A stretch of DNA of 64,000 nt from Anaeromyxobacteraceae bacterium (GTDB lineage: Bacteria > Myxococcota > Myxococcia > Myxococcales > Anaeromyxobacteraceae). Location of the stretch: assembly GCA_047602405.1 (NCBI GenBank), contig JASGHJ010000002.1, forward strand, positions 1,696,001 through 1,760,000. Reading direction: 5' to 3'. Shown piece by piece: positions 12,441-21,979 of this stretch. Within the stretch, counting starts at the first letter, position 1. Every line of letters begins with the position of its first letter. Below the pieces are notes generated by a model, which saw nothing but the letters and a program-made list of their open reading frames with translations, had not been told where the DNA came from and searched no databases. Made by a program: the position numbers and the translations under genes.

Positions 12441-12972
12441 GGAGCTCGTCCGGCGCCCCGGGCCCGAGGTGGCTCCAGGCGATCCGGCCGAGCGCCTCGA
12501 CGTCGGGGACCTCCCAGGCCGGCCGCCGCCGGGCGTGGACCCGGGCGGCGTAGCCCGCGAGCGCGTGCAGCTGCTCGGGGCTCGGCGAGACCACGGGGCG
12601 CGCGCGCTTCAAGGCGACGAGCGCCTCGAGGGGCGCCATCCCCCGGGCGACGAGCACGCAGGCCGCGACGAGCGCGCTGCGGCCGATGCCGTACTGACAG
12701 TGCACGAGCACCCGCTCGCCGGCGTCGAGGCCGGCGCCCGCGAAGGCGACGGCCTCGTCCAGCGCCGTGGGCGAGACCGCGCGCGTGTCGCAGGTCGGCA
12801 GGTGGAGCAGCGTGATCCCGTGCGTGCGGAGCACCTCGGCGTCGTCGCAGGCCTCCTCGCGTACGTCGATCACCCGCGCGAGGCCGTGATCGGCGGCGAG
12901 CCGGGCCGCGAGCTCCATCGGGAAGTGCGCGCCGACGGCGAGCCCGGGGGTGACGAAGTGGAGGTCGAGCAC
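12415..12972 (-). CDS. Dual-specificity/tyrosine protein phosphatase
   Basis: VHCQYGIGRS (HCX5R) P-loop. Confidence 0.85.
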   Translation of the reverse strand: MLDLHFVTPGLAVGAHFPMELAARLAADHGLARVIDVREEACDDAEVLRTHGITLLHLPTCDTRAVSPTALDEAVAFAGAGLDAGERVLVHCQYGIGRSALVAACVLVARGMAPLEALVALKRARPVVSPSPEQLHALAGYAARVHARRRPAWEVPDVEALGRIAWSHLGPGAPDELLRRSSTRG

Positions 12973-15900
12973 TACGCCCGGATGATGCTTCGTGAGGGCC
13001 CCTCCGGCGAGCCCCCGGGCCGGCCCGCATCCCCCTCCGGGAGCCGGAAGGTCGCCACCATGGAGGACAGCTCCTCGGCCTGGCTGGAGAGCTCGGCCAC
13101 GGTGGAGCTCGTCTCCTCGGCGCTCGCGGCGTTCTGCTGGGTGACCCGCTCGACCTCCGCGATGGCGCCCGCGATGCCCTCCACCCGCGTCGACTGCAGG
13201 CGGGCCTGGTCGCGCAGGCCGGAGATGGCCCCCACGACCTCCCCGACGCCCGCGGCGATCTCGCCGAGCCGCGCGTTCACGCGGACGCCCACCGCGCGGC
13301 CGCCCTCGGCCTCGGCCACCGAGGCCTTGATGAGCTTCTCGGTGCGCATCGCGGCGTCCTTCGAGCGGAGCGCGAGCGAGCGCACCTCCTCGGCGACGAC
13401 CGCGAACCCCCTCCCCGCCTCGCCGGCGCGCGCGGCCTCGACCGCGGCGTTGAGGGCGAGGAGGTTCGTCTGGAACGCGATGTCGGTCATGTCCTTCAGG
13501 ATGTGCTCGGTCCCCTCGGCGGAGGTCCGCACCCGCTGCATCGCGCCGTCCATCTCGGCGGCGAGCACCTCGCCCTCGCGCGCCTTCGCCTCCGCCTTCG
13601 TGGCGAGGGCCGCGGCGCGCTCCGCGTCGCCCGCGCTGTCGCGGGCCGCGACGGCCATCTCCGACAGCCTCGCGGACGCGTCGGAGACCGCGTGGGCCTG
13701 CGTGGAGGCCCCGTTCGCGACCGCCTGGGCCGCGCCGGCGATCTGCGACGAGCCGCCGGACACCTGGTGGGCCGCCTCGGCGACCTGCGCGATCGACTGG
13801 CCGAGCGCCTGGCCGGTCGCGTTGACCGCCCGGGCGAGCCGGGCGTGGTCGCCCGCGAACCGCCCCTCGACGCGGGTCGAGAGGTCGCGGCGGGAGAGCG
13901 CCTCGAGGGCCTTCAGGGTCGCCTCGACCGGCGCGGTGACCGCGTCGAGCGTGCGGTTCATGCCCTCGACGACCTTGCGGTACTCGCCCTGGTGCCGGGC
14001 CGACTCCGCGCGGGCCGAGAGGTTCCCCTCCACGCCGGCGCGGGCGAGCACCTCGACGTCCTGGACGAGCGCCCGGATCGCCGCGGACGCCCGGGCGAGG
14101 CTCTCCTGGACGCGCGCGAAGTCCCCGGGGTAGCGGCCCTCGACGCGCTCGGGGAGGTCGCCGTGGGAGATCCGGTCGAGCGCCTCGCTGGCGGCGCCGA
14201 CCGGGGCGAGCACCGCGTCGAGGGTGGCGTTGACGCCCTCCACGATGCGGCGGAAGTCCCCGCCGTGCCGGCCCGCGTCGGCGCGCGCCTCGAGGCGCCC
14301 CTCGACCGCGGCCAGCGAGAGCATGGAGGCGTCGGCGACGAGCGCCCGGATCGCCTCGCTGCACCGGTCGAGGCTCGACTCCACCCGGGCGAAGTCGCCT
14401 CGCCAGCCGGCCGCGAGCGGCGGGGGGATGTCGCCCGCCGCGATCCGCTCGACCTGCTGGGCCGCCACCGAGAGCCGGGACACGAGCGCCTCGACGGCCG
14501 CGTTGGTGGCGTTCACGACGTCGAGGTACGCGCCCCGGAAGCGGGCGGTGTCGGCGCGCTCGGCGAGCCTGCCCTCGACGACGTGCGCCCCGAGCCGGGC
14601 GACCTCGTCGTGGATGGCGGTCACGGCCTCGCGGATGCCGAGGAAGCTGCGGGTGAGGGCGTCGGCGTCCGAGCGCGGCACGAGCGCCTTCCCGAGAATC
14701 GCCCCGCGCGATCGCCTCGGCCGCCGTGGAGGTCTCCCGGAGGTAGTCGAGGGTGGACCGGAAGGCGTCGGCGAGCCGGCCCACCTCGTCGCCGCTCCGG
14801 TGGGTGACCTCCGCCGTCACGTCGCCCCGCGCGATGCGCTCCGCGGCGCCGGCCATCTCCTCCACGGGCCGGGCGATGTGGAGCGCGGCGCGGCGCGCGA
14901 CCGAGGCCGCCGCGCCGAGGAGCGCGAGCGTCACGAGCAACACCGCGAGGCCGCCGAGGAGCAGCGTGCGGTGCATCCCGGCGGAGGCCTCGAGCGCCTC
15001 GGCGCGGGAGAGGTCCGCGAGGATCACGAAGTCCCAGGGCTCGAAGTACGCGACCGCGCCCAGGCGGGCGTCCACCGCGCCGCCCTTCCCGGCCGCCTGC
15101 CGGTCGAAGCGGGCGAGGGCGGTCCCATCGAGGGCCTTTGCCGCGTCGAGGAGGCCCGGCAGCCAGGGCTTCCCGGTCGCGTCCGGCTCCTCGAGGAACG
15201 TCTTGCCCTCCTCCGCCGCGTCGGGGCCCATGAGAAGCTTCCCGCGCTGCGCGCCCGAGGCGCCGTAGACCGCGACGTACCCGGTCTGCCCGATCCGCGT
15301 CTCGGCGATGGCCGTGCGGATGCTGTCGAGCGCGTCGAGGCGGATGCCGACGAAGAGCATGCCGGAGACGGCCCCGGTGGCGTCGCGGAGGGGCTCGTAG
15401 GACGTGAGGTACCAGGCGTCCACCACGAACGCGCGGCCGTCGTACCGGTTCCCGGCGAGCACGGCGGCGGTCACCGCGTTCGGCTTGCCGGAGGGGTCGA
15501 CCGCGGGGATGTACGTGCCGATGGCGCGCTCGCCCTTCGCGTTCGCGACGCTCGTGGCCACGCGCAGCATGTCGCCGCGCGCGTTCATGCGCTGGAAGAG
15601 CGTCACCTTCGCGCCGGTGAGGCGCGAGACGTCGTCGACGAGCGGCAGCCGCATCGCGAAGTCGTTCGTCTGCGGGATCGGCGTCGCGCCGAGCGCGAGC
15701 CTGGGGAGCTTCACCTCGACCGTGGACTTGTCGAGCTGGTTGACGGCCGTCCACGTGACCGCCTCCGCGGTGGCCTGGACCCCGCCGCCGCGGACGAGCG
15801 CGTCCTTCGCGACGCGAAGGGCGGAGCCCACCGCGCGGGACACCTCCGCGTGCGTGGTCTCGCAGACGAGGCGGAGGTCGCGCACGGTCCGCTCGACCCC

Positions 15901-16065
15901 GCCGCGCGCGAGCGCCTCCACGTCCTCCTCGACCTGGGCGCCGATGCGCCAGCGTGCGGCCACGAGGATGCCCGCGAACGCGACGGCGAGCGCCACGGCG
16001 GGGACGATGGAGACGACGAGGATGCGCTGACGGAGGGGGCGATGGTCGCCCAGGAGGCTCGACAT
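12972..16065 (-). CDS. Methyl-accepting chemotaxis protein, Cache plus multiple HAMP domains (apparent frameshift at ~14696-14700)
   Basis: TM-Cache-TM-HAMP N-terminal half; [30 protein letters not shown] signalling hairpin; one-base removal at GAATC fuses the frames. Confidence 0.9.
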
Positions 16066-16227: not shown

Positions 16228-16566
16228 TCAGCGCGCGAGCGGCACCACGATGGTGCCGTCCTCGGTGACCTCGAGGGGGCGCTCGCCGGCGCGGGCGGAG
16301 GCCCCCTGCCCGAGGCGCCAGCGCAGCACGTAGGTCCCGTCGGAGAGCTTCACCGCGTGCCGGACCTCGCCGCCCGCGGTCGGCGCGGCGAGCTCGGCGT
16401 GGCGCACGGGCTCGCCCCCGCGCACGAGCTCCACCTCGAGCACCGCGGGCGCCGGGCTCGGCGGCAGGCCGTAGACGAGCACGACGTCGCGGGGCGCCGA
16501 CCGGAAGAGGAACACCCCCACCCCGACCGCGCCCAGCACCGCGACGAGCCGCGCGAGCGGCTTCAC
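16228..16566 (-). CDS. Hypothetical exported protein
   Basis: GTG overlapping the upstream TGA, GGAGG RBS, N-terminal hydrophobic segment. Confidence 0.6.
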   Translation of the reverse strand: MKPLARLVAVLGAVGVGVFLFRSAPRDVVLVYGLPPSPAPAVLEVELVRGGEPVRHAELAAPTAGGEVRHAVKLSDGTYVLRWRLGQGASARAGERPLEVTEDGTIVVPLAR

Positions 16567-17009
16567 TTCCTCGCCTTCCTCGTGGGCTTCCGGCGGGCGG
16601 TCGCCTTCACCTCCGGCCTCGGCCGCCCGGCCGCGTCCGGGCGGACCCGGATCTCGGCGTGGAGCTCGATCGTGCTCTCGGAGAGGGCCTTCAGGAACTC
16701 CCGCCGCACGGTCTCCGACTCGAGGAAGCGCCGGACCTCCTGGCCGAGCAGCCGGAGCACCTCGTCCTTCGCCGCGGAGGCCTGCGAGCCGACGAAGCCC
16801 ACGACCTCCTTCGGGAGCTTCCAGTCGCGCGCGAGCTTGCGCGCCCCCTCCTCCGTCATGAACAGGGCGCCCACGCCCGCGAGGAGCGCGCGCTTCACCG
16901 TCTCCGGGATGAGGCGCCTCGACTCCTCGGACGCGGCCTCGTCGCCGGGGCTCGCCTCCTCGCCCGCGGCGTCCTCGTCCTGCCCGAAGGGATCCCTGGG
17001 GAGCGGCAT
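16563..17009 (-). CDS. Conserved hypothetical protein (phasin-like LAGVGA motif); host gene of the group II intron
   Basis: KRALLAGVGALFMTEE motif; typical codon usage; ATG lies at the intron 3' junction. Confidence 0.7.
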   Translation of the reverse strand: MPLPRDPFGQDEDAAGEEASPGDEAASEESRRLIPETVKRALLAGVGALFMTEEGARKLARDWKLPKEVVGFVGSQASAAKDEVLRLLGQEVRRFLESETVRREFLKALSESTIELHAEIRVRPDAAGRPRPEVKATARRKPTRKARK

Positions 17010-18937
17010 TGGTCGATCCTGGCGCAGTACCGGCCGTTAGGCCAGCCTGGTTCCAGGGCCTCCTTTCAAACCGTGCGTGCGGGTTTCCCGCACACGGCTT
17101 AACGATGGTCTTCGCGCGGCAGCTTGCGCGGGGTAGCGGACGCGGCCCATGCAGCGGTGCAGGCCAAGCTCGAAGAGACGTTCGAAGGGCCAAGCCTCGT
17201 ACTGATAGCGAGTCCGCTGACCACCGCGCCGATGGAGCCAGCGCGTGATCCGTTCGTGCACGTACCAGTCGACGCGGTTGAACTCCCGATCCGCTGTTCC
17301 GGTCCGGAAGTAGTTGGCCCAGCCCCGGATGACGGGGTTCACGGACGCGATGACCTCCTTCACGTCCTTCGCCCCGCTCCTGCGCACGTCCGTCAGCTCG
17401 TGGACGCGCTCGCGGACGCGGGTCATCGCCTTCGGTGAGGGCCAGCGGTGCATGTAGTGCCGGTCGGGGCGCCGCTGGATGCTGCGCCGCTTCCGGTTCA
17501 CGCACCCGAGGAAGGTGAAGCCTTCCTTTCCTCGCCTCAGATCGACGATCCGCGTCTTCTCCGGGTGCAGCGTCAGGCCGAGGCGCGCCATGATGAGCTC
17601 GACGCGCCGCCTCGCCTCGTTCACCTTCGACTCCGTCCCACACATCACGACGAAGTCGTCGGCGTACCGCACCAGGACGCCGAGGTGCTTGCACCTCTGC
17701 GCCCAGATCCGGTCGAGCTCGTGCAGGTAGACGTTGGCGAGCAGCGGCGAGATCACTCCACCCTGTGGCGTTCCCGCCACGGGGTTTCTCACCGTGCCCT
17801 CCTCCATCACCCCGGCCTCCAGCCACTTCCGCAGGAGCTTCAGCACCCTGCGGTCCGAGATCCGCTCCGCCACCATCGCCATCAGCTTCTGCTGGTCGAT
17901 GCTGTCGAAGTACGCCTTGATGTCGGCGTCGAGCACGAAGTTGTGACCCTGGTTGCCAGCCTCGCGGATGGCCTCCAGCGCCTGCGTCGCGCTCCGCTTC
18001 GGCCGGAACCCGTAGCTCGACGACAGGAAGTCGGCCTCGAAGATCGGCTCGAGCACCAACTTCGCAGCCATCTGCGCCACGCGATCCCGCACCGTCGGGA
18101 TCCCGAGCGGCCGCTGCTTTCCGTCTGCCTTCGGGATGTACCGCCGCCTCACCGGGAGGGGGCGGTATTCGCCTGCCAGGAGATCGGCCTGGATCCCTTC
18201 GAGGAACGCCTCGACTCCGCTCTCCTCGATGGCCCGGATGGACTCGTCGTCCACCCCTGCCGCGCCTCCGTTGCTGCGCACCCGCTTCCACGCTTCCCGC
18301 AGGACGTCACCCCTGCAGATCCGGTCGTACAATGCGTGAAAGCGCCGCGTGCTGCTCCGCTTGGCGGCCACGTAAAGCCGGCGCTGGAGTTCTCGCACTT
18401 TGTCGATGGGGGTGTTGGGCCTCACGGCCATGCCCTCGCGCTTACCCCCAGTGCCGACGCGACCAAAGCAGGGCCCCTTCCCTCCGCGCGGTTATCCCGC
18501 GCCTCACCGGTACTACGGGCCCCTCGGACTCCCTTCCGGCTCCTCGCGCTTTCGACTCCCGTCTTATGCGCTCGGTCTCTGCCCGACGCGGGCTGCCGGC
18601 GAGGGTCTCTCGTGTTCCACACCGATCCTTCGCGACGTGCCGCCGCCCCTACCCCGGGGAGCCCCAGCGTCCGTTCCGGACCAAGGACGCTGTGCATCGC
18701 CTTCGCCGTGGCATGACCGGCTCGGCGCTCCCGAACACCTTTCGGCTGAGGATTTGTCGAGGCTGAAGCGTTCACCTTGTTGCGGCCCGCCGCTTCGCTT
18801 CCTCCGTACGTGAGGCTTTCGACGCACCGCTCGGCATGCCCGGTCTCCCGGACAAGCTGGTGCCTGCTTCCGGGCTCTCCGGCGATTACCCGGACCGGAC
18901 TCTCACCGGCTGGATCGGTGCAGCTTCCACGACGCAC
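17007..18937 (-). mobile_element. Group II intron, 1931 nt (boundaries could shift by 1 nt to 17008-18938)
   Basis: 5' GTGCG at 18937; domain V AAGCCGTGTGCGGGAAACCCGCACGCACGGTTT at ~17068-17100; DVI hairpin CCTGG...CCAGG ending ACCAAT(G); internal RT ORF. Confidence 0.92.
17037..18431 (-). CDS. ltrA: Group II intron reverse transcriptase/maturase, no endonuclease domain
   Basis: RPLGIPTVRDR, GTPQGGVISPLL, YADD, FTFLG, GWANYF (X domain). Confidence 0.96.
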   Translation of the reverse strand: MAVRPNTPIDKVRELQRRLYVAAKRSSTRRFHALYDRICRGDVLREAWKRVRSNGGAAGVDDESIRAIEESGVEAFLEGIQADLLAGEYRPLPVRRRYIPKADGKQRPLGIPTVRDRVAQMAAKLVLEPIFEADFLSSSYGFRPKRSATQALEAIREAGNQGHNFVLDADIKAYFDSIDQQKLMAMVAERISDRRVLKLLRKWLEAGVMEEGTVRNPVAGTPQGGVISPLLANVYLHELDRIWAQRCKHLGVLVRYADDFVVMCGTESKVNEARRRVELIMARLGLTLHPEKTRIVDLRRGKEGFTFLGCVNRKRRSIQRRPDRHYMHRWPSPKAMTRVRERVHELTDVRRSGAKDVKEVIASVNPVIRGWANYFRTGTADREFNRVDWYVHERITRWLHRRGGQRTRYQYEAWPFERLFELGLHRCMGRVRYPAQAAARRPSLSRVRETRTHGLKGGPGTRLA

Positions 18938-18963
18938 CATGACCCCATCCTAGCGCGTCGGGG

Positions 18964-20044
18964 CTACCGCGGCGCGCCGATGACCGGGAGCTTCGGCGCC
19001 TTCACGACGGCCATCGAGACCGCGCCGCCGACGTTGCGGGCGACGTCGAGGAACGCGGCGGCCTGCGGGCTGTCGGGGTGCCCGGCGACCACCGGCACGC
19101 CCTTGTCGCCGCCCTCGCGGATGGCGAGGTCGATCGGCACCTCGCCGAGGAACTTGATGCCCATCTTGGTGGCCGCGGCGCGGGCGCCGCCCTTGTCGAA
19201 GATGGCGGTCTCGGCGTGGCAGTGCGGGCAGACGAAGGCCGACATGTTCTCCACGATGCCGAGCACCGGGATGTTGACCTTGTCGAACATGAGCTTCGCG
19301 CGGATGACGTCGGCGAGCGCGACGTCCTGCGGGGTCGACACGAGCACCACGCCGGCGGCGCGCACGTTCTGGGCGAGGGTGAGCGGGACGTCGCCGGTGC
19401 CGGGGGGCAGGTCGAGCACGAGGTAGTCGAGCTCGCCCCAGCGCACGTCCTTGATGAGCTGCATGAGCGCGCCGGTCACCATGGGCCCTCGCCAGACCAG
19501 CGCCTCGTCCGGATCGATGAGGAAGCCGATCGACATGACCTTGAGGCCGTGGGCCTCGAGGGGATCGAATCTTCTGCCCGTCGGTGGAGGTCGGCTTCTG
19601 GTTCACGCCGGTGAGGATCGGCAGCGAGGGGCCGTAGATGTCGGCGTCGAGGAGGCCGACCTTCGCGCCGAGGCGCGAGAGCGCCACCGCGAGGTTGATC
19701 GAGACGGTGCTCTTGCCGACGCCACCCTTCCCCGCGCCGACGAGGATGATGTTCTTCACGCCCGGGGTCATCTGGGACTCGACCGCGCCCGGCGCGCTGC
19801 GCACGACGGCCGTGAAGGCGAGCTCCACCCCGGAGAAGCCCGCGCCGGTGAGCGCCGCGGTGACGTCCTTCTGGAGGGTGTCCTTGAACGGGCAGGCGGG
19901 CGTGGTGAGCTCGACGGTGAGCTTCACGCGGGTGCCCTCGACGGCGAGGTTCTTCACCATCCCGAGCGAGACGAGATCGCGCTTCAGCTCGGGGTCGAGC
20001 ACCTTCTTGAGGGCGGCGGTGGCGGCGGCGTTGTCGAGCGTCAT
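18964..20044 (-). CDS. apbC: Mrp/ApbC Fe-S cluster carrier ATPase (apparent frameshift at 19567-19571)
   Basis: [39 protein letters not shown]. Confidence 0.9.
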
Positions 20045-20535: not shown

Positions 20536-21979
20536 CAATGCCGATCGGTTAGCGCCAACCGATCGAGACCGATGGGGATTTTGGAGGCCGGGGCAGCAGA
20601 GTTGCCGCGGCGATCCAGGAGATCATGATGCGGCGATCGCCCGGAGGGCGATCCCATGCCGCGTCGCCCCGTTTCCGCCCAAGAGGACAGCTCGGGCGAG
20701 TTGCTGGATAGGTTCCAGGCGAGCCTCGATCCCGAATGGATCGAGGAAGCCCTTCAGGCCACCGGGACGGCCACCATCCGCCGGCGCCGCCTTCCAGCCG
20801 AGCAGGTCGTCTGGCTCGTGCTCGGGATGGGCATCTACCGTAACAAGCCCATCGCCGAGATCGTCGCGGAGCTCGATCTCGCGCTACCGGGGCGGCGCCC
20901 GCGCGCGGCCTCGAGTTCGGTGACCCAGGCGCGCGAGCGGCTGGGCAGCGAGCCCATCCGCTGGCTGTTCGAACGCAGCGCCGAAAAGTGGGCGCACGAG
21001 AGTGCGCGCCGGCACGCGTGGCGCGGGCTCGCCGTCTACGGCGTGGACGGCACGACCGTCCGTCTCCCGGACTCCGAAGCGAACCGCGATCATTTCGGCT
21101 ACGCCGTGAGCTCCCGAGGCGAGAGCGCGTATCCGATGGCACGCCTCGTCACGCTGATGGCCCTCCGCTCGCACCTGCTGGCGGCGGCCCGCTTCGGTCC
21201 ACAGTCGGGCAGCGAGAATCGCTCTCGCCAGGGAGTTGTGGCCGCTCGTGCCGGACGAGTCGCTGTGCATCGTGGATCGCAACTTCCTCTCGTCGGCGCT
21301 GCTCATCGGCATTGCGAGCCACGGGCATCGAAGGCACTGGCTCATCCGCGCGAAGAGCGACACGGCCTGGAAGGTAGTCCGCTCGCTCGGGCGCGGCGAC
21401 TGGCTCGTCGAGAAGACCGTCCACCGGGACGCCCGCCGAGAGAACCCTGACCTCCCCGAGCGCTGGGAGATGCGGGCAATCCGCTATCAGCGGAAGGGCT
21501 TCAAGCCTCAGACCCTGCTGACGTCGATGACGGACCCGGAGGTTTACCCGGCGGCCGAGATCGTCGCGCTCTACCACGAGCGCTGGGAGATCGAGCTCGG
21601 CTACGACGAGGTCAAGACTGTCATGCTCGACCGCGAGGAGACGACGCGCAGCAGGACTCCTCGCGGCGTCTCCCAGGAGCTCTGGGGCCTCGCCCTCGCG
21701 TACAACCTCGTCCGGCTCGAGATGGAGCGCATGGCCGAGGACGCCGGCGTCACGCCCGACCGCGTCAGCTTCAAGAACGCGCTCATGTACATCGAGCACG
21801 CCCTCCTAACGCTCTCCCTAGAGAGCGCGGGACGCATCCCGGAGCACCTCCGCCGCCTCCGGGAAGACGTCGTGCACTTCATCCTGCCGAAGCGACGGCT
21901 GCGGTCCTACCCGAGGGCCGTGAAGATCAAGATGAGCAACTACCCCCGGAAACGCCGAGGGCTTAAGTGAGCGGCATTG
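20536..21979 (+). mobile_element. IS4-family insertion sequence, 1444 bp
   Basis: IRL CAATGCCGATCGGTTAG and IRR (reverse complement) CAATGCCGCTCACTTAAG; direct repeat GTGCTAGGCT at 20526-20535 and 21980-21989. Confidence 0.93.
20656..21970 (+). CDS. IS4 family DDE transposase (apparent frameshift at 21216-21220)
   Basis: [37 protein letters not shown] (YREK motif). Confidence 0.92.

Follow-up and report, generated by a model that had tools for sequence, protein, structure and literature searches.

Several described group II introns bear on the element reported here. The published consensus for group II intron ends is GUGYG...AY (PMC4028801), and natural gamma-gamma-prime pairs are given as G-C or A-U (PMC4238363). 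Class C (IIC) introns insert after intrinsic terminators and are rarely transcribed (PMC7306698, PMC4028801). The IIB1/CL1 clade (Avi.groEL, EcKTE56.groEL; Michel et al. 2007 as cited) occupies sites at or beside the initiation or termination codons of host genes, carries a CL1 reverse transcriptase (RT) with an endonuclease and a subdomain Ia of 300-700 nucleotides (nt), and includes a groEL member confined to a single site (PMC12584367). RmInt1, of class D, lacks an endonuclease and is biased towards the lagging-strand template (PMC8914252), employs exon-binding sites (EBS) 1, 2 and 3 together with gamma-gamma-prime pairing, has a pyrimidine as penultimate base (PMC4238363, PMC8914252), homes to an insertion sequence (IS) element and ends in CC with a gamma G. 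Class F, g1-g4 and unclassified endonuclease-less introns combine an RT-X protein with an IIB-like RNA and a 5-nt-type domain V loop, and the class F intron Ge.ur.I1 is reported to splice at AC (PMC3552965, PMC3753933). In C.te.I1 of Clostridium tetani, annotated starts of downstream open reading frames (ORFs) lie in domain 5/6, and the splice site is non-canonical (PMC3919590). Here we describe a group II intron of 1931 nt in a 64,000-nt stretch of contig JASGHJ010000002.1 from an Anaeromyxobacteraceae bacterium (the window, at its full length), inserted directly behind a start codon on the minus strand. Very probably, this intron and its relatives target leaderless promoters and their start codons by base pairing, and borrow the expression signals of the host.

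The window's intron resembles class C introns in that a generic expression signal is targeted through short exon pairing at many loci, but it lies at a predicted transcription start, at the opposite end of the transcription unit. It shares with the IIB1/CL1 clade its insertion next to a host initiation codon; however, its protein (464 amino acids, RVT_1 and GIIM only) has no endonuclease, its RNA has no subdomain Ia, and its clade occupies many unrelated genes, ends in AUG and has a -10 box in its target. The Azotobacter groEL intron, which the original prediction had named as a precedent, belongs to a different lineage. The likeness to RmInt1 extends to all the traits listed above except the homing site and the end, the gamma pair being C-G in the window's clade. 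The protein is of similar size to those of the class F, g1-g4 and unclassified introns, the nearest named relative being the unclassified Rh.sp.I1 (45% identity). In contrast, C.te.I1 is ORF-less, class B-like and known from a single locus, its starts are spliced away and not duplicated, and it is not described as targeting start codons (PMC3919590). We found no description of start-codon or leaderless targeting by group II introns in a full-text literature search that left subscription journals mostly outside and did not compare class F boundary entries; the terms 'start codon', 'initiation codon', 'Shine' and 'ribosome binding' are absent from the text of the review PMC4424553. Comparative evidence strongly supports a clade of group II introns, apparently undescribed, that would target promoters together with start codons. 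The parts of the window on which the argument depends are as follows.

17007..18937, minus strand: group II intron, 1931 nt, GUGCG...CCAAUG, from the reading of the junctions and the structure
18938..18940, minus strand: host start codon ATG, last 3 nt of the 5' exon and core of intron-binding site (IBS) 1, with the predicted transcription start at 18940; from the empty allele and the EBS1 register
18947..18952, minus strand: TAGGAT, predicted -10 box (sigma-70 type) of a leaderless promoter, separated from the host ATG by 6 nt and serving in its 3' part as IBS2
18748..18753, minus strand: EBS2 (AUCCUC), which can pair with the 3' part of the -10 box; from covariation, tree pairs and the target bias within the genome
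18715-18710, minus strand: EBS1 (CAUGCC), which can pair with the start codon and the bases immediately before it; register from outgroups
18649, minus strand: EBS3 (G), pairing with the first base past the terminal AUG; from covariation
18526, minus strand: gamma nucleotide C in J2/3, matching the terminal G (gamma-prime); from the tally of ends
18422..18940, minus strand: frame of 172 codons opened by the host ATG, spanning domains I-III and ending 7 nt inside the RT ORF
17037..18431, minus strand: RT/maturase of 464 amino acids with YADD and no endonuclease domain (RVT_1 and GIIM; TIGR04416 above cut-off)
17068..17100, minus strand: domain V, catalytic hairpin of 33 nt with the AGC triad, from motif and folding
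17011..17063, minus strand: domain VI, with the branch A at 17013, 7 nt from the intron end
17020-17017, minus strand: AGGA in the 3' strand of domain VI
17007..17009, minus strand: intron-terminal ATG, a spare start in frame with the host gene, followed by CCG
16563..17006, minus strand: 3' exon, with codons 2-148 and the stop codon of a conserved hypothetical protein, from orthologues; the frame from the terminal ATG has 148 codons

The element has the six-domain RNA of a group II intron with a catalytic domain V and a bulged A in domain VI, it encodes an RT/maturase, and its EBS1, EBS2 and EBS3 pairings with the exons, as well as the gamma-gamma-prime pair, are supported by covariation. Its 5' part matches the Rfam family group-II-D1D4-4 (RF02003), and the RT ORF runs through domain V to a stop in the domain VI loop. 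Both junctions (ATG then GTGCG; AGGA-N7-ATG-CCG) read as originally described, and the position of the intron-side AGGA within domain VI was also correct. Of the canonical ends only the 5' one, GUGCG, is present, the 3' end being AUG with a gamma C.

In order to characterize the targets we compared the 80 best relatives, out of at least 594 stretches from a scan of species-representative genomes, and additional intron copies from 28 genomes of those 80 relatives; one locus with a doubtful 5' end (L047) and loci with less than 30 nt of 5' exon were excluded from the counts. A start codon lies directly 5' of the intron in 117 of 118 distinct junctions (ATG 96, GTG 18, TTG 1, CTG 1, ATT 1), one doubtful 5' end being left out. 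Homologous introns are thus placed strictly with regard to start codons. Upstream of the start, TAnnnT is present at 110 of the 117 sites with spacers of 6, 7 and 8 nt in 68, 34 and 8 cases (1000 shuffles: mean 3, maximum 8). The middle bases of the box vary (TAGAAT, TAGGCT, TAGGAT, TATAAT), and GGAG or GAGG occurs in only 5 of the 117 upstream regions, under the shuffle mean of 9.9. Seven sites of one lineage (G031: L011, L113, L142, L151-L154) are missing from this count; there the spacers between box and ATG are 6-10 nt, with 5 of 7 within 5-8, and near-leaderless genes are also among the targets.

In GC-rich bacteria, leaderless genes are recognizable by a TAnnnT at a distance of about 12 nt from the start (PMC3160421). 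The site in the window has this arrangement, the first T standing about 12 nt before the start with no Shine-Dalgarno (SD) sequence. Across the 5328 genes roughly called in this genome by a simple codon model, TAnnnT peaks at spacers 6 and 7 (199 and 128 starts), with a smaller bump at spacers 8-10 and 7-30 at spacers outside 6-10; the box precedes about 442 of the 5328 genes and 0.4% of all C[AG]TG sites (122,739). The host gene in the window is thus predicted to be leaderless, and the upstream AGGA, which the original prediction had taken for a ribosome-binding site, is none; it is the middle of TAGGAT, one variant of a predicted sigma-70-type -10 box.

Eight copies of the intron are present in this genome, and all eight lie directly behind a start codon (7 ATG, 1 GTG), so that this placement is not due to chance. 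All end in ...CCAATG, with flanks that diverge immediately after, and the seven aligned copies carry at most 4 substitutions with respect to the window copy, a 1-nt insertion being present in one and a 240-nt deletion in the RT in another. The eight copies interrupt unrelated genes, namely two sensor kinases, RecG, a LysR regulator, methylglyoxal synthase (MgsA), a TPR protein, GalT and the gene of the window. At the LysR, MgsA and GalT sites the ATG is the true start, since the family profile already begins within the first 8 residues of each protein. In a close relative (G010), each of the three sites checked, the window's and two more, is empty; the orthologue of the window's gene there is 99% identical, and the uninterrupted site reads TAGGAT-N6-ATG-CCG. 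This comparison with an intron-less orthologue, proposed in the original prediction, bears out that removal of the intron leaves exactly ATG-CCG. In 16 farther relatives of the genus, the same gene has neither the TAnnnT box nor an intron at its start. The same close relative carries a copy at a GTG start (L109, 94% identical to the window's intron), which differs jointly in EBS1 (CAU to CAC), target (ATG to GTG), terminal triplet (ATG to GTG) and the EBS3/+1 pair (G-C to U-A).

The pairings indicate how such sites would be recognized. EBS1, fixed as CAU or CAC in the clade and followed by one further base, pairs with the start codon and the base preceding it: its positions 1-4 pair with exon positions -1 to -4 in 116, 117, 115 and 111 of the 117 sites, position 4 changing together with the base 5' of the start codon. 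The partner of EBS3 is the first base of codon 2, that of EBS2 the last two to three bases of the -10 box. Indeed, position 1 of EBS2 is an invariant A facing the last T of the box, and position 2 is paired with box position 5 in a fraction of 0.81 of 63 lineages (shuffled 0.42, maximum 0.60; L051 excluded from this test), with a median p of 0.016-0.03 on independent tree pairs; for position 3 the fraction is 0.48 (shuffled 0.24, maximum 0.39). Since the paired bases lie upstream of the predicted transcription start, the target would be DNA. An RNA target, namely the 5' end of the leaderless mRNA, is unlikely, as EBS1 position 4 and EBS2 pair upstream of that start.

The original prediction had left two options for the boundaries, an end in AUG or an additional G at the 5' end, and only the first of these holds. 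In ten outgroup rows EBS1 occupies positions 3-8 of a 9-nt loop and its first base pairs with exon position -1, each row having at least 5 of 6 nt paired from there; because the corresponding first base in the clade is the C of CAU, the G of the start codon is exonic. A gamma C goes with a terminal G in 121 of 121 gamma-C junctions (ATG 112, GTG 6, ACG 1, TAG 2; 3' ends located by motif, twintron loci excluded), and a gamma G with 13 AC-ended outgroup junctions, one further gamma-G row with an ATG call being taken as a motif mis-call. A scan based on structure only (domain VI pairing, branch A plus 6 nt) finds an AUG-type end in 95 of 120 clade junctions and chose other hairpins in the remaining 25. 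Finally, the EBS3 column of domain I shares 1.51 bits of mutual information with the base after the AUG (next column 0.26); the pair is Watson-Crick at 105 and G-U at 6 of 117 sites, Watson-Crick in 72 of 78 domain I types, and covaries on phylogenetically independent pairs (p 0.001-0.008). The true EBS3 column follows GGGGUA, and the base after CGAAGGC, which was also considered, shows no covariation. On these four structural lines, EBS1 register, gamma C, branch distance and EBS3 covariation, we assign the intron as GUGCG...AUG, ending in G and not in AY. The alternative register, AT|GGTGCG...AAT|G, conflicts with all four, and relatives also begin TTGCG or TCGCG after the ATG. Nor does the 3' ATG stem from a target-site duplication, as GTG, TTG, CTG and ATT sites still have an intron ending in ATG. 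The rare-start sites (ATT, TTG, CTG; L034, L056, L191, L122) gain an ATG from the intron end; at L122 it is followed immediately by a stop codon.

What the intron may gain from this location is apparent in its reading frames. Insertion at position +4 of a promoter would cause the whole intron to be transcribed. The host AUG then opens a frame, presumably translated, that extends through the ribozyme and either continues into the RT or, in the window copy, reaches the RT start. In 50 of 63 lineages this frame contains no stop between the 5' end and the vicinity of J2/3 (domains I-II), compared with 1 and 0 for the other frames, and total stops through the 5' ribozyme amount to 27 in this frame, 193 and 282 in the others. 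Outgroup introns have stops in the host-start frame in 10 of 10 cases, and in all three frames in 9 of 10. Fusion to the RT is seen in 25 of the 63 lineages, whereas in the window copy the leader frame ends 7 nt inside the RT ORF, a layout predicted to allow translational coupling; a profile search with this frame gave no Pfam match. The intron thus likely borrows the promoter and start codon of its host to make its own RT.

For the host gene, splicing would restore a leaderless mRNA, whether the 5' exon has 3 nt or belongs to read-through RNA; as the apbC/mrp gene ends 23 nt upstream, read-through transcripts with a longer 5' exon are possible. Of 109 junctions, 102 have a frame of at least 80 codons opened by the terminal triplet, compared with 26 and 58 for the other two frames, which places the spare AUG in frame with the host gene. 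In RNA that is unspliced, or in the lariat-3' exon intermediate, the AUG or GUG would likely serve as a reserve start, the least certain step of the model. The original prediction, that the downstream gene can be translated with or without splicing, is plausible for the window copy, because the RT stop lies 27 nt upstream of the terminal ATG and re-initiation is conceivable; in most lineages this distance is 100-122 nt. Most likely, splicing back to a leaderless mRNA is the main route and the terminal AUG a back-up. Rebuilding of the ribosome-binding site at the 3' end, as originally proposed, did not turn out to be a family trait. Among 64 lineages, AGGA precedes the terminal AUG in 20, GGAG or GAGG in 4, TAnnnT in 9 and any such signal in 22, and in the window copy the AGG of the domain VI AGGA is paired in a stem. 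A general rebuilding of the -10 box in domain VI was likewise rejected, the window copy having CAGGAT in its place.

Alternatively, the terminal AUG could be kept for ribozyme reasons, through pairing with EBS1 in the excised intron or an intermediate, its use as a start codon being incidental. The GUG end occurs in 2 of 3 lineages with EBS1 CAC but in 2 of 61 others (Fisher p 0.009, with few independent events), one end is ACG, and most lineages have no ribosome-binding signal at this point, all of which would fit; against this, the variants are almost exclusively AUG and GUG, both of them start codons, and are in frame with the host gene in the 102 of 109 junctions given above. We regard this reading as doubtful, though less so than the others below, and it is compatible with the targeting model, touching its last step only.

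A second question concerns the origin of the single-stranded target. With dnaA as proxy for the origin, 43 of 44 copies (from 15 genomes) run in the direction of replication, compared to 229 of 429 (53%) leaderless-like starts in this genome; fragments, copies off the dnaA contig, two copies past the presumed terminus in one genome (G033) and four copies on this genome's second contig were set aside. Of the latter, three agree by GC skew and the window's copy lies at the skew turn. The target strand would thus be the lagging-strand template, as the strand bias suggests, with a fork mechanism by analogy with RmInt1. It has also to be considered that the single strand is provided by the open promoter complex, in which RNA polymerase melts the non-template strand, with sigma supplying recognition of the TA. 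The bases read are those of the -10 element, the spacing of 6-10 nt varies like that of transcription start sites, and TA is needed beyond pairing; but a bubble-only route predicts no strand bias, unless priming of reverse transcription still needs the fork, and we consider it improbable.

Base pairing does not account for the leading TA of the box. The genome contains 1037 unoccupied sites that fit EBS1, the EBS2 core and EBS3, 67 of which begin with GA, the perfect match to EBS2, and 10 with TA; despite this, 6 of 7 comparable occupied sites begin with TA. A bulged EBS2 register that would pair with the TA fits no better than shuffles. Recognition of the TA must therefore be supplied by the RT, a sigma factor or selection, and reading by the RT protein or the host sigma factor is likely. 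In its extreme form, selection would replace targeting altogether, insertion taking place at any NCATG-like site and surviving only behind leaderless starts, and the short EBS1 pairing (4 bp) and the TA would be in keeping with this. However, copies in this genome differ by so few nucleotides that the insertions are recent, tolerated intergenic sites would be expected among the 117 junctions given how rarely a C[AG]TG site carries the box, and EBS2 covaries with the box. Such a pure filter is very unlikely, although selection may still account for the TA part.

Least likely of all is that SD-led start codons are targeted, with ribosome-binding site and ATG rebuilt at the 3' end and the host gene translated normally without splicing: AGGA-N7-ATG stands at both junctions of the window copy and AGGA ahead of the terminal AUG in the 20 lineages mentioned, one of the eight sites in the genome is GAGGAT, and ribosomes reaching the nearby RT stop could melt domain VI, but GGAG and GAGG are below chance upstream of the sites, T-A-n-n-n-T is the invariant element (perfect TATAAT in 8), neither an SD-like nor a -10-like signal precedes the terminal AUG in 42 of 64 lineages, and the SD-led orthologues of the window's gene in the 16 relatives are unoccupied.

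Several observations weigh against the targeting and borrowing model that we favor. The lineages are related by descent, and the counts overstate their independence. TAnnnT is missing at 7 of the 117 sites, and support for a -35 element is weak, with TTG at spacer 17 in 5 of 110 cases. Positions 4-6 of EBS2 show no covariation across the 63 lineages, and that of position 3 (U against A) falls short of significance on independent pairs. The host-AUG frame contains stops in 13 of 63 lineages, and as most lineages keep a GAGGG-ATG of their own in front of the RT, its synthesis need not depend on the host AUG. The terminal triplet opens no 80-codon frame in 7 of 109 junctions, one end being ACG. 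We found no precedent for a 5' exon of 3 nt. Public RNA runs gave 24 matches, each with less than one tenth of the query words; in four runs, mostly with introns of other organisms and none with this organism, no intron-spanning joint was present among the matches listed. Judged from sequence comparison, an undescribed pan-phylum retroelement that targets promoters, inserts at +4, is translated through its ribozyme from the host AUG, ends in AUG and splices from a pppAUG 5' exon is, as a whole, on balance probable, with clearly less confidence than the targeting model itself.

Class C introns are marked by a short domain V and by the lack of an EBS2. The 33-nt domain V of the window copy, the covariation of EBS2 and the promoter-type targets place the intron outside that class. 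Among the 80 best relatives 63 are of the AUG type, and they fall into ten named phyla, mainly Actinomycetota, Pseudomonadota, Acidobacteriota, Myxococcota and Planctomycetota. A single clade, with a Shimodaira-Hasegawa-like approximate likelihood ratio (SH-aLRT) support of 99, holds the 71 AUG-type rows in a tree of 105 RT proteins built by a quick method and rooted at the midpoint. The references placed on this tree, g1, g2, g3 and Rh.sp.I1 (Table S2 of PMC3552965), fall outside the clade. The only other row within it, L055, is read as a twintron with its inner intron parsed, another intron apparently lying within the 3' part of its domain I. In three copies of a further genome (G032: L012, L114/L141, L155), a g2-type intron sits at the 3' end of domain V of the AUG-type intron. 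From the 5' end to J2/3 there are about 410 nt in the window copy and 377-470 nt in clade members, as found with a search range that would miss larger domain I insertions in relatives. Many members (L013, L019, L020, L035, L044 and others) have a variable hairpin of 30-60 nt within the first 20-80 nt, absent from the window copy, at the position taken by the large subdomain Ia in the unrelated IIB1 start/stop clade.

A neighboring group of Bacillota relatives (L068, L071, L073, L082-L084, L140, L194-L198, L218) lies after terminator-like sites formed by a hairpin and a T-run, as seen in 13 of 13 junctions folded. These introns are not class C, have a full domain V and a 6-nt EBS1. Paenibacillaceae members with a parsed 3' end (L068, L073, L218, and also L058) end in AG, with a gamma C where parsed, and Neobacillus members end in AC with a gamma G. 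Independent terminator targeting, and a natural AG-ended group II intron, are possible in this group.

The remaining features of the locus are the following.

18764, minus strand: delta-prime (A), partner of delta; U-A / G-C covariation by eye in the alignment
18716, minus strand: delta, from its alignment position
18964..20044, minus strand: upstream apbC/mrp Fe-S carrier gene, frameshifted in the assembly, from family profiles

The 3'-exon protein has orthologues in 30 of the 31 genomes searched, its own included, and gave no Pfam or NCBIfam match in a profile search. The apbC/mrp gene is split by a frameshift near 19560 beside a C run, likely an assembly error. A chemotaxis-receptor-like ORF (12972-16065, minus strand) and a transposase-like ORF (20656-21970), both labeled from their translations, also appear broken across frames, which suggests indel errors in the assembly.

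The intron provides a natural C-G gamma pair in a group II intron that ends in G, and the AG-ended forms among its nearest Bacillota relatives bear on the origin of spliceosomal AG ends. The model raises the questions of whether the ribozyme can splice with a triphosphorylated exon of 3 nt and of how translation through a folding ribozyme affects splicing. In practical terms, each insertion points to a likely leaderless promoter, a promoter-targeting intron could serve gene targeting in GC-rich bacteria, and automated annotation will place the ends of such introns one base off. For the family itself, seizing the transcription start would be a survival strategy distinct from hiding after terminators or in mobile DNA and, if true, the mirror image of the terminator-targeting class C introns.

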